Below, piece after piece: positions 4,925-33,676 of a stretch of DNA of 40,026 nucleotides. Position numbers and translations under genes: made by a program. The stretch is from a virus. The notes beneath the pieces are model-generated. The model was not told where the DNA came from. It did no database searches and was given only the letters and a program-made list of their open reading frames with translations. The stretch covers positions 1-40,026 of the IMG/VR virus record IMGVR_UViG_3300016644_000071; one strand, 5' to 3'. Within the stretch, counting starts at the first letter, position 1. Every line of letters starts with the position of its first letter.

Positions 4925-5608
4925 ATGGACTATCAAAAACCTTGCCAGTATTCAATAAGATTAATAGATAGGTTGAAATCACTGGATACTAAAAATGTAT
5001 TGGATTTTGATTTGATTAATAAAGCTATCTACTGGGCTAAGAAGTATCACGGCGACCAGAAGAGAAAGAGCGGTGAGGCGTATTACACACATCCCTTAGA
5101 GGTAGCTTATATGATTTCTGATTATAAGCTAAAAACTGACGTAATCGTTGCTTCTATCTTGCATGATATTATTGAGGATACACCAGTAACGGCAGGGATG
5201 ATACTTGATAATTTTAACTGGAGAATAGCTGAAATGGTTGACATGCTTACTCGTGATAGACCAGATGGAAATAAGCTAAGTGTAGAGCAGATATTGAATA
5301 ATGCTTATGACCTAAAAGACAAAGAGGTTTTACTCATAAAGTTAATTGATAGATTGCATAATATACAGACTATAGGAAGCATAGCACCTGAAAAACAGAA
5401 AAAAATAGCTCAGGAGACTTTACAAGATATAATTAGCTTAACAACTATTTTTCAGGATTTAAACTTAGAAATAGAGCTTAATACAAAAAGTCTTACCATA
5501 TTATACGGAAAGGAAATTGCCGATCAGATGATTAAAAAAAGATATAATATTTTTTCTATTTCCGATAGTTACCAACTGCCACTTCCAACTTTTCAAAATG
5601 AAATATAG
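4925..5608 (+). CDS. RelA/SpoT-family HD hydrolase domain protein, no synthetase domain (small alarmone hydrolase-like)
   Basis: YYTHPLEVA, ASILHDIIEDT (HD) and LIKLIDRLHNIQT (compare SpoT ..ADRLHNMRT). 227 aa. Confidence 0.8.
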   Translation: MDYQKPCQYSIRLIDRLKSLDTKNVLDFDLINKAIYWAKKYHGDQKRKSGEAYYTHPLEVAYMISDYKLKTDVIVASILHDIIEDTPVTAGMILDNFNWRIAEMVDMLTRDRPDGNKLSVEQILNNAYDLKDKEVLLIKLIDRLHNIQTIGSIAPEKQKKIAQETLQDIISLTTIFQDLNLEIELNTKSLTILYGKEIADQMIKKRYNIFSISDSYQLPLPTFQNEI

Positions 5609-6839
5609 CGTATATAAATCCCGCTATCATTGGCAATATAATAGCTAACATTCCCCAGTTACCGATGTACTCTGTTAAATAAGCTAAACCGAACGAAGTA
5701 ATTAAGTAAATAAATGCACGTGATATAGCATATAACATACTAGCGTAAGTAAAACGCTTAAATACTGGAAAATGTTTATAACAAATTGGCATAGCAGAAG
5801 AGTAAGAAAGCAAAAAGAAAGTTATAACCCCCTCAAAAATAAAAAATGTGTAATAATCGCAATCATGGATAATGAATGAAAACAGAACTATAAGTAATGT
5901 AAAAATTGTTACTTTAATTTTTAATAAAAGTAACGGGTAAACCCAATAACTAATAACAGTAAAAAACAAAAAGCTTAGTACTTGTATTATAGATAAAATC
6001 AAATTATGGGTAATTACTTCGGCAGAAGATAAATTGAAAGAGTTTTTTAATATTAAGGCACAATGTACATACACGAAATAAAAACATATTGGCCAAGCAC
6101 ATTGCATAAGATATAGTGCTAGAGCGGTTTTAAATTCTACTTTTTCTATATAGATTTTGTTACTTTTTTTACATTCTGCAAGTCTTTTACGAGCATCAGT
6201 AAAATCTTTTGTTTCTTTTAATAGAACTCTAGCCTTTGCACCTATTAAAGCTACTATTGCCCCAATCCAAAATACAGTACGCCAATTTAATCCGTAATTG
6301 GTAGTATACCAAGCAATAATTAAAGCCCCCATACCTCCAATACTTGAAAAAACAGTGATAGTACTTACAGAAACGTATTGTATAGGTGGTTTAGTAATTT
6401 CCGTTACGTATAACTCTGCCCCTATTACTTCTCCCATAGATGACATGCCTTGAATAATACGGCATATTGTAATAACCCAGGCAGCAGTAATACCTATTTG
6501 TTCGTAGGTTGGAAGATTTGCCATAACTACACATGAAATAGCCATCATAAAAGTAGTTATTATTACTGTTGCTTTTCGTCCTATATTATCGCCAATATAA
6601 CCAAATATTAAAGCTCCTATAGGCCTTAAAACATAAGTAGAACAAAATGCAAATGCCGCAAGTAAGGAGGCAGTGAATGGGTCAGTTTTTGGAAAAAACA
6701 ACTCATTAAGTAACACTGCCATATGAACGTAGAGCATCAAGTCAAAATACTCAAGAAACGTGCCGATAGATAATAAACCAACTGCTTCTTTCTGCTCTCT
6801 TGTAAGGCTACGTTGCTCGGCTATCATAAATATGACCAT
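5556..6839 (-). CDS. MFS transporter, metabolite:H+ symporter (MHS, ProP-like) family
   Basis: 427 aa with about 12 hydrophobic segments. N-terminal GTFLEYFDLMLYVH...LFFP and loop motif GYIGDNIGRK are MHS/ProP-type signatures. Confidence 0.85.
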   Translation of the reverse strand: MVIFMIAEQRSLTREQKEAVGLLSIGTFLEYFDLMLYVHMAVLLNELFFPKTDPFTASLLAAFAFCSTYVLRPIGALIFGYIGDNIGRKATVIITTFMMAISCVVMANLPTYEQIGITAAWVITICRIIQGMSSMGEVIGAELYVTEITKPPIQYVSVSTITVFSSIGGMGALIIAWYTTNYGLNWRTVFWIGAIVALIGAKARVLLKETKDFTDARKRLAECKKSNKIYIEKVEFKTALALYLMQCAWPICFYFVYVHCALILKNSFNLSSAEVITHNLILSIIQVLSFLFFTVISYWVYPLLLLKIKVTIFTLLIVLFSFIIHDCDYYTFFIFEGVITFFLLSYSSAMPICYKHFPVFKRFTYASMLYAISRAFIYLITSFGLAYLTEYIGNWGMLAIILPMIAGFIYAIFHFEKLEVAVGNYRK

Positions 6840-6998
6840 AACTTAATTTCTTCACATATTAGTAAAACAAATTAAATTTAGTTGTAAAAATGATTTTTAT
6901 TAAAAATATAAACATTAAACTTGTAACAGTGCTTTTTAAACCACATTTTGGGGTCTAAACGTAAACCTCAGATTTTTCCGAAATTGCAATCAACAAAT

Positions 6999-33150: not shown

Positions 33151-33368
33151 TATTTAACTCCATTCCTAAGCAGTACTGCAAGGACTTGATCTCTATCATC
33201 TCCAGTATCGCCAATACCTGCTGCAATTGTTATAAGATCAGGTTTGTTAGGAAGATCTGGCAGGAAATCGTTAGCAAGTAATTTATCTAGGCTAACACTA
33301 TCACCTGCTTGTACAATAGCTGTCAATAAATCATTAATTTTTGTTTGTATAGCTGTTGGGAATGCCAT
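33150..33368 (-). CDS. hypothetical protein (72 aa)
   Basis: ORF tightly packed after the ankyrin gene. Confidence 0.5.
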   Translation of the reverse strand: MAFPTAIQTKINDLLTAIVQAGDSVSLDKLLANDFLPDLPNKPDLITIAAGIGDTGDDRDQVLAVLLRNGVK

Positions 33369-33370
33369 AG

Positions 33371-33676
33371 TTATTTACCTTTTTTCTTTTTAGTTACTTT
33401 TTCTTTATCATCTAGAGATTTATTTAAAATATTCGCTACTTCCAAGTTGTTATAATAATTTGCCCAGAATAAAGCGTTATGTTTTTCTATATCCTCTATT
33501 TCCTTATTAGCACCAGAGATTAAAAGTATTTTTACCATCTCAATTTTATTATAACATACTGCCCATATAAGAGCCGTGTATCCGTATTCGTCTTGATGAT
33601 TAAGATTTACTCCGGTATCTATTAATTCCTTAACTTTTGTGATATCTCCTAACTTTACGTAATCTATTAAATTCAT
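33371..33676 (-). CDS. ankyrin-repeat protein (101 aa, about 2-3 repeats)
   Basis: DEYGYTALIWAVCYNKIEMVKILLISGANKEIED..HNALFWANYYNNLEVANIL fits the ANK consensus (G-TAL-A...G....V..LL..GA). Confidence 0.85.
   Translation of the reverse strand: MNLIDYVKLGDITKVKELIDTGVNLNHQDEYGYTALIWAVCYNKIEMVKILLISGANKEIEDIEKHNALFWANYYNNLEVANILNKSLDDKEKVTKKKKGK

Follow-up and report, generated by a model that had tools for sequence, protein, structure and literature searches.

We analyzed a 40,026-nucleotide DNA sequence of a virus (IMG/VR record IMGVR_UViG_3300016644_000071, positions 1 to 40,026; hereafter the window, meaning this whole stretch at its full length) that carries two short RelA/SpoT-type alarmone hydrolases (HD1 and HD2), a major facilitator superfamily (MFS) transporter, a patatin-like phospholipase and an ankyrin-repeat protein. 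The window is very likely the complete or nearly complete genome of a short-tailed, double-stranded DNA phage of the MAnkyphage lineage whose host is Candidatus Megaira, and in which the five genes have separate histories. This explanation as a whole draws on sequence identity, synteny, junctions, domain integrity and taxonomic affinities, all of which were observed directly. An original prediction, made from the letters alone, had read the five genes as the mobile cargo of Rickettsiales-type intracellular bacteria and had proposed a tailed phage of such a host. Pfam found all five genes, with their expected domains, where they had been placed, and the proposed phage and host were borne out by collinearity with MAnkyphage and by plasmid matches, 15 of 15 of which came from Megaira, Rickettsia or Paracaedibacter. 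The cargo proposal held for the HD1-MFS pair and failed for the rest, since HD2 is a generic phage gene and the patatin and ankyrin genes belong to the phage lineage. The five genes show three different histories, and mobile cargo of the Rickettsiaceae can be demonstrated only for the HD1-MFS pair.

Phages of this kind are already known, and the window adds a member to their group, with new cargo. The new points are a plasmid-homologous spoT-MFS cassette in a phage, a generic second alarmone hydrolase at a hairpin, the co-variation of patatin and tail fibre, and the breadth of the lineage in metagenomes.

Kinship with MAnkyphage and the host

When 50,697 phage records were searched by megablast, the sole record with DNA similarity to the window was OP381185.1, Megaira polyxenophila phage MAnkyphage_25.80. 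This record is a circular genome of 38,448 bp, with Candidatus Megaira polyxenophila in its host field and Cryptomonas sp. SAG 25.80 as its source. Local blastn alignment showed that the two genomes are collinear over about 29.8 of 40.0 kb (about 75%) at 67-95% nucleotide identity, with long blocks at 85-90%. The gene order, the lysis block, the YqaJ/Bet module and the portal, capsid and tail genes are the same in both, and the terminase-patatin-fibre arrangement and an ankyrin gene in the early region occupy the same positions. The window has a tailed-phage gene set, in which Pfam identified a Phage_capsid_3 capsid protein, a Peptidase_S74 fibre, a GH24 endolysin, a P22-like portal and a large terminase of the T4 type, and in which the translations showed a spanin pair. 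For the description of MAnkyphage, PMC10925606 cites George et al. (2023, Curr Biol 33:1982). The earlier statement that few phages other than those of the Wolbachia WO type are described for this niche had overlooked this 2023 description.

The two phages differ at several places. MAnkyphage holds DUF4065 and RelE/CopG genes in the slot where the window holds HD1 and the MFS gene, and its second small ankyrin gene is missing from the window. The window carries an insertion made of a 63-aa open reading frame (ORF), HD2 and a 74-aa ORF, without a resolvase, and its regions 34837-35873 and 38172-39772 show no DNA similarity to MAnkyphage. The repeat copies in the tail fibre also differ between the two in number and arrangement. 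The window has no terminal direct repeat of at least 30 nt, and the contig alone cannot prove circularity or completeness.

We then looked at how widespread the lineage is. The large terminase falls in a cluster at 90% identity that has 150 member sequences, several of them on 35-40-kb contigs, and 32 related terminase loci were present in IMG/VR. By these numbers, the MAnkyphage lineage is common in metagenomes. Its genomes have defined variable slots.

The assignment of the host to Candidatus Megaira, a member of the Rickettsiaceae that lives as an obligate intracellular bacterium in protists and algae, is supported by sequence shared with plasmids as well as by the MAnkyphage record. A sensitive blastn search of window positions 1-8000 against 72,556 plasmid records gave 15 matches, 10 to Megaira, 4 to Rickettsia and 1 to Paracaedibacter plasmids, and the source bacteria of all 15 are obligate intracellular alphaproteobacteria. 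Two separate loci of the window are common to Megaira plasmids at 74-93% DNA identity: the HD-MFS cassette, and a module on the forward strand (1568-3288) that encodes a YqaJ exonuclease (E 1.4e-31) and a RecT/Bet recombinase (RecT E 7e-5). The module has a counterpart block on the Megaira plasmid pPCS109 (window 814-3264; pPCS109, our L004, 397-3245), with 80% protein identity for the exonuclease and 74% DNA identity for the module. This phage-like YqaJ/RecT block is carried by Megaira plasmids, namely pPCS109, L005 and L017/L018. The distance between this block and the HD-MFS cassette is about 3.5 kb on the plasmids; in the phage, the two are separated by the lysis genes.

The hydrolase-transporter cassette

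HD1 and the MFS gene lie in a variable slot (slot A, 4753-7014), which consists of the cassette itself, whose homology to plasmids spans 4754 to about 6815, together with roughly 200 nt of unique sequence. HD1 (4925-5608, forward strand; 227 aa) is a SpoT-like, hydrolase-only RelA/SpoT homologue (RSH) with a Pfam HD_4 match at E 9.5e-20. As had been predicted, both hydrolases match only the hydrolase part of the RelA/SpoT model; both keep the catalytic residues. HD1 spans only positions 1-169 of the 687-position TIGR00691 model and has no synthetase domain. The catalytic set checked in both proteins was the His / His-Asp / Asp set that Ogata et al. used for the Rickettsia SpoT paralogues, and in HD1 it is present as H56, H80-D81 and D142. 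The closest solved structures of HD1 are the hydrolase domains of long Rel/SpoT enzymes (E 5e-24). Its protein identity is 61-75% to genes of Megaira plasmids and 41-50% to genes of Rickettsia plasmids.

The transporter (5556-6839, reverse strand; 427 aa, or 423 aa by gene callers) matches Pfam Sugar_tr (E 2.7e-20) and MFS_1 (E 5.4e-17). It is convergent with HD1, and the 3' ends of the two genes overlap by 53 nt. Its best model is TIGR00883, the metabolite/H+ symporter (MHS) model, matched at E 4e-47 over positions 1-396 of 400 with 161 bits against a cut-off of 443, and several homologues are named MHS family by JGI. The predicted 'ProP-like' label was right at the level of the family only. 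ProP itself was rejected: the equivalog model NF007927 gave 94 bits against a cut-off of 544, and the alignment ended at position 428 of 500, with no C-terminal extension. The named homologues, at 55-64% identity, are almost all from Tisiphia, Rickettsia or Trichorickettsia. Similar MFS genes in deposited phage genomes reach at most 35% identity, and most of those records are really bacterial contigs.

Homology to MAnkyphage and to seven IMG/VR relatives breaks at 4752, the stop codon of the o-spanin gene, and restarts at 7015-7030, and the homology to Megaira and Rickettsia plasmids covers 4754 to about 6815. Over 1,857 nt (4953-6809) the cassette DNA is 92.7% identical to L017, a plasmid-like contig that itself matches Megaira plasmids only, and it is 74-82% identical to sequenced Megaira plasmids. 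No target-site duplications or repeats were found at the junctions of the cassette. In five of the relatives slot A contains only two small ORFs.

The same overlapping HD-MFS pair is present on the Megaira plasmids pPCS109 and NDG2 plasmid 2, on the Rickettsia plasmid pREIP, on the plasmid-like contigs L017/L018 and on L019, an island with integrase, AlpA and primase genes. In L016 the pair adjoins a ResIII/TnsA-like gene and a DNA methylase gene. Ogata et al. (2005; PMC1166351) reported that seven R. felis spoT hydrolase paralogues adjoin MFS transporter genes of the proline/betaine type. The window shares with these Rickettsia and Megaira pairs a hydrolase-only SpoT protein with its catalytic residues beside a putative MHS-type transporter, convergent and with overlapping 3' ends; it differs in that its pair resides in a phage genome, between lysis and virion genes.

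We also found the pair in a phage relative. L007 (IMGVR_UViG_3300045525_000042, 8024-10076) carries another HD-MFS allele in the same slot; the flanks of this cassette are 88-92% identical to the window, whereas the proteins of its central part are only 57-62% identical. This mosaic suggests that cassette alleles recombine within the phage lineage. Taken together, HD1 and the MFS gene are genuine two-gene mobile cargo of the Rickettsiaceae that was exchanged with host plasmids recently. The phage would have gained the cassette by a recent recombination with a Megaira plasmid, into the slot between its lysis and virion genes.

The second hydrolase, the patatin and the ankyrin gene

HD2 (31187-31711, reverse strand; 174 aa) is predicted to be a small alarmone hydrolase (SAH) of the Mesh1 type. 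It has an HD_4 match at E 8.5e-16 and its match to the 687-position RelA/SpoT model is confined to the hydrolase part (the first ~120-170 positions in both HD proteins); it keeps the catalytic residues H38, H62-D63 and D123. It is 31% identical to HD1 over 127 residues. Its best solved structures are the Mesh1 proteins 3NQW and 3NR1 (E about 1e-15), and it matches phrog_990 at E 4e-38. Homologues were found in 148 phage records with many hosts. The closest named ones come from bacteria such as Cedecea, Klebsiella and Burkholderia (53-62% identity), and the nin region of a lambdoid prophage contains a homologue with 62% identity. HD2 resembles the phage hydrolases of phrog_990 in its length of about 170 aa, in having HD_4 as its only domain and in its catalytic residues, and the homologues of that group lie in early or nin regions; it differs from them in residing in a phage with a probable obligate intracellular host and in sharing its genome with a second, unrelated RSH hydrolase. 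By these affinities HD2 is a typical phage moron of the common small-alarmone-hydrolase type, without Rickettsiales affinity.

HD2 was found in none of the 32 related loci. It is part of a 1,427-nt insertion on the reverse strand (cassette B, 30905-32331), together with the 63-aa ORF (30995-31186) and the 74-aa ORF (31930-32154). Exactly 30905-32331 is missing from two relatives, L021 and L022, in which the flanking sequence matches the window at 92-99.6% identity (97.5-99.6% on the terminase side). In these relatives the uninterrupted site is a perfect hairpin, CTTTTCTTG-TAGCG-CAAGAAAAG, whose stem measures 9 bp and whose loop holds the insertion in the window; the hairpin flanks there are at 30875-30904 and 32332-32345. 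The hairpin may be an intergenic terminator that serves as an insertion hot spot. A T-rich stretch follows the hairpin on the coding strand.

Upstream of the terminase, the relatives also have a slot of variable content (slot B), in which we observed ParA-type ATPases, an outer-membrane beta-barrel protein, a pentapeptide-repeat protein, a resolvase and a 453-aa membrane protein without a family match (L046 5068-5742, L040 1320-1967, L038 3453-4178, L033 1442-1777 and L046 3891-4463).

The gene of the patatin-like phospholipase (27535-28578, reverse strand; 347 aa; Pfam Patatin E 1.7e-20) is flanked by those of the large terminase and the tail fibre, and overlaps the start of the fibre gene by 4 nt. 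It is intact, as had been predicted: PF01734 gave 74.4 bits against a gathering score of 27.7, and the glycine-rich GGG (residues 13-15), the GTSIG motif with Ser50 and the DGG motif with Asp209 are all present. No signal sequence was evident on reading the translation. The protein is 96.8% identical to the patatin of MAnkyphage and resembled no other deposited phage patatin. Among the relatives, sequence downstream of the terminase is available for 27, and in 22 of these a patatin occupies this place. The gene is a conserved gene of the phage lineage, not recent cargo.

Two known patatin types were considered. CapV-type proteins of the cyclic oligonucleotide-based antiphage signalling system (CBASS; NF041079) are the best curated and structural matches of the window patatin, which shares the patatin fold, the glycine-rich loop and the GxSxG and DGG motifs with CapV and with Rickettsia Pat1/Pat2. 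A CBASS CapV was rejected, with 118 bits against a cut-off of 200 and neighbours that are the terminase and the fibre, with no cyclase (CD-NTase) gene. A likeness to Pat2, one of the Rickettsia patatins named in the original prediction, did not hold either. When we aligned the protein to Pat2 of R. felis (RF_p11, 536 aa; pRF sequence CP000054), only the motif region aligned, 76 residues (7-81) at 26% identity. A patatin on the Megaira plasmid pPCS109 is a full-length homologue at 25% identity.

The tail fibre (23051-27538, reverse strand; 1,495 aa) is named from the annotation of OP381185 and has a Peptidase_S74 chaperone domain at its C-terminus (E 2.9e-9). Among the relatives, patatin identity tracks the identity of the fibre N-terminus (Pearson 0.88, p 1e-6), not that of the terminase (r -0.02). 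Because patatin divergence follows the fibre N-terminus and not the terminase, the two genes behave as one exchangeable module, as far as their sequences tell. The fibre gene also contains repeats (24534-25905 and 26061-26333), with about five tandem units of 273 nt (91 aa) and about 13 copies of a 21-nt Ala-rich unit.

The ankyrin-repeat protein (33371-33676, reverse strand; 101 aa; Ank_2 E 1.4e-13) scores above the Pfam thresholds, with 51.6 bits against 27.3 for Ank_2 and 43.1 against 21.1 for Ank. It is 53% identical to the ankyrin protein UXM65456.1 of MAnkyphage, which is at the same position, and a homologue is present in the relatives that cover its region. The curated entries that it matched best are Legionella Dot/Icm Ank effectors, with scores that all fell far short of the cut-offs. 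Like the patatin gene, it is a conserved lineage gene, not recent cargo.

The five genes have a GC content of 27.5-32.6%, as against 33.6% for the whole window. They are indeed AT-rich, as had been noted, in the same way as the rest of the window, and were therefore rejected as compositional islands.

Proposed roles, lifestyle and remaining genes

From their domains, possible roles can be proposed for the cargo. HD1 would lower the level of (p)ppGpp, and the transporter would import a metabolite or an osmolyte from the eukaryotic cytosol; together they would keep an intracellular host that is short of nutrients in a state resembling growth, which would favour the production or carriage of the phage. 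HD2 would remove alarmones and so block the stringent response, or an abortive infection based on alarmones or on toxic small alarmone synthetases (toxSAS). In this regard, SAHs have been reported to neutralise toxic alarmone synthetases (PMC7229694). The linkage to the fibre suggests that the patatin may act at entry or exit, for example as a virion-associated or fibre-linked lipase on a membrane. A more far-reaching and quite tentative proposal, which we think is probably wrong in its full form, is that phages of the MAnkyphage lineage move the spoT-MFS module, a hallmark of the intracellular lifestyle, among the plasmids, islands and cells of the Rickettsiaceae and that the fibre-linked patatin is a virion lipase for crossing a membrane at entry or exit.

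If this were true, transport by phages would help to explain the multiplied spoT-MFS paralogues in genomes of the Rickettsia family. The nearly unchanged capture of a spoT-MFS pair of that family would represent a concrete and testable route of horizontal spread among intracellular bacteria, and the finding of two alarmone hydrolases that differ in origin in a single 40-kb phage suggests that control of alarmones is important when an intracellular host is starved. Phages that infect obligate intracellular bacteria are rare objects of study; to our knowledge, and in the collections that we searched, MAnkyphage is the only such phage besides the Wolbachia phage WO. The culture of Cryptomonas SAG 25.80 with Megaira and MAnkyphage is a system in which the idea of alarmone control could be examined.

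Several points weigh against our interpretation. The host was assigned indirectly, from the MAnkyphage record and from shared DNA. The direction of transfer, plasmid to phage or phage to plasmid, is inferred, and the roles of both hydrolases and of the transporter, including their substrates, were deduced from sequence, as were all other biochemical roles proposed here. Enzymes of the Mesh1 type can act on other substrates, according to a passage of PMC9765508. The correlation between patatin and fibre comes from 18 loci that are phylogenetically non-independent. Promoter-like sites in cassette A numbered 14, against 13.5 expected in shuffled sequence, and give no support for independent expression; neither promoter nor terminator matches were commoner than in shuffled sequence, and such a scan is uninformative in AT-rich DNA. 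Finally, the terminase and capsid genes of one relative, the 35.7-kb contig L053, are deposited under a 'Bacteroidales bacterium' metagenome-assembled genome (MAG).

The element could be mainly a plasmid-like episome of Megaira, a phage-plasmid or a domesticated prophage, that is not lytic and whose cargo serves long-term carriage. Family searches found no integrase in the window and a tRNA scan no tRNA gene, and a capsid-protein scan of 185,579 species-representative genomes found no integrated copy. ParA partition ATPases or a resolvase are present in slot B of relatives, and the ParA genes hint that some members of the lineage may be maintained in the manner of plasmids. MAnkyphage has a RelE/CopG addiction module and a replication initiator, and modules are extensively shared with Megaira plasmids. 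However, the window itself has neither ParA nor a toxin-antitoxin pair, and intact structural, packaging and lysis genes are kept across dozens of contigs, several of which stand alone at 35-40 kb. We regard a plasmid-like lifestyle as plausible, and a mainly episomal, non-lytic element as possible but on balance improbable. That alternative concerns lifestyle and is compatible with most of what we conclude on lineage, host and gene histories.

It was also considered that the five genes form a joint module directed at the eukaryote, as in phage WO, with effectors that act on the protist cell. Among the effector domains typical of intracellular bacteria are ankyrin repeats and patatin phospholipases, and the Legionella effectors among the ankyrin matches point the same way. 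Phage WO, which has an intracellular Rickettsiales host, also carries ankyrin and patatin genes, a likeness to the window by analogy only. On the other hand, the genes of the window lie at four separate loci and have different histories, and hydrolases of the SpoT type work within the bacterium, as does an MFS transporter of the inner membrane. For the patatin, no signal sequence is evident; its link is to the fibre and not to the ankyrin gene, and it has no similar deposited phage counterpart except that of MAnkyphage. No WO record matched the window DNA or its patatin in the phage collection searched. Phage WO is a long-tailed, integrating prophage, whereas the virion genes of the window are of the podovirus type, as judged from the tail tubular annotations of OP381185 and the P22-like portal, and the window lacks an integrase. 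Given the dispersal and the different histories of the genes, we consider a WO-like module less likely than a plasmid-like lifestyle, and rather unlikely altogether.

That the host is instead a low-GC, free-living Gram-negative bacterium, for example one of the Bacteroidota, with Rickettsiales-like cargo by coincidence, is extremely improbable: the 'Bacteroidales' deposit and the closest kin of HD2 and patatin, which lie outside the Rickettsiales, favour it, but they stand against 85-90% DNA identity over long blocks to a phage recorded from Megaira, 74-93% identity to Megaira plasmid sequence at two separate loci, and named MFS homologues that are overwhelmingly from the Rickettsiaceae. The deposit in question (L053; DAOQYW010000034.1, 35,708 nt; protein HNQ68369.1) was the sole match of the capsid scan. 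It is a stand-alone contig of phage size without a host flank, and because of this it gives no host information; its placement in a Bacteroidales MAG is probably a case of mis-binning that could mislead host prediction.

The remaining genes include those for lysis, packaging and the virion. The lysis block (3374-4754, forward strand) encodes a holin-like 74-aa ORF, the GH24 endolysin (3595-4050), a DUF1064 protein (4038-4346; E 3e-18) and an embedded spanin pair, with the i-spanin at 4349-4582 and the o-spanin at 4512-4754, all on the forward strand. The N-terminal transmembrane segment and the lipobox of the spanins were read from the translations. Both lysis features named in the original prediction are real, namely the endolysin (Phage_lysozyme E 5e-38) and the lipobox, L-I-G-C, which belongs to the o-spanin. 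On the reverse strand, the large terminase subunit (28581-30044) has Terminase_6N and Terminase_6C matches. The virion block, also on the reverse strand (17998-22162), consists of the major capsid protein (17998-19236; Phage_capsid_3 E 8e-16), a 299-aa protein (19447-20346) and the P22-like portal (20351-22162; P22_portal E 2e-49), and its capsid-portal region is collinear with MAnkyphage.

For the virion genes between 6999 and 17986, Pfam and PHROGs gave essentially nothing, and the gene names there rest on the GenBank annotation of OP381185. Within this tail block, the OP381185 counterparts of 11545-12603 and 11187-11561 are annotated as 'autotransporter beta-domain protein' and 'acetyl transferase'; neither window ORF had a Pfam match. 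In the two regions without similarity to MAnkyphage (34837-35873 and 38172-39772), the ORFs had no family matches except a weak ComF-like phosphoribosyltransferase match at 35442-35873 (E 6e-4, below the cut-off). At the left end, a small protein (101-454) gave weak MarR_2 and Phage_rep_O matches, both below the cut-offs. On pPCS109, a MarR-family gene lies between the phage-like block and the HD-MFS cassette.

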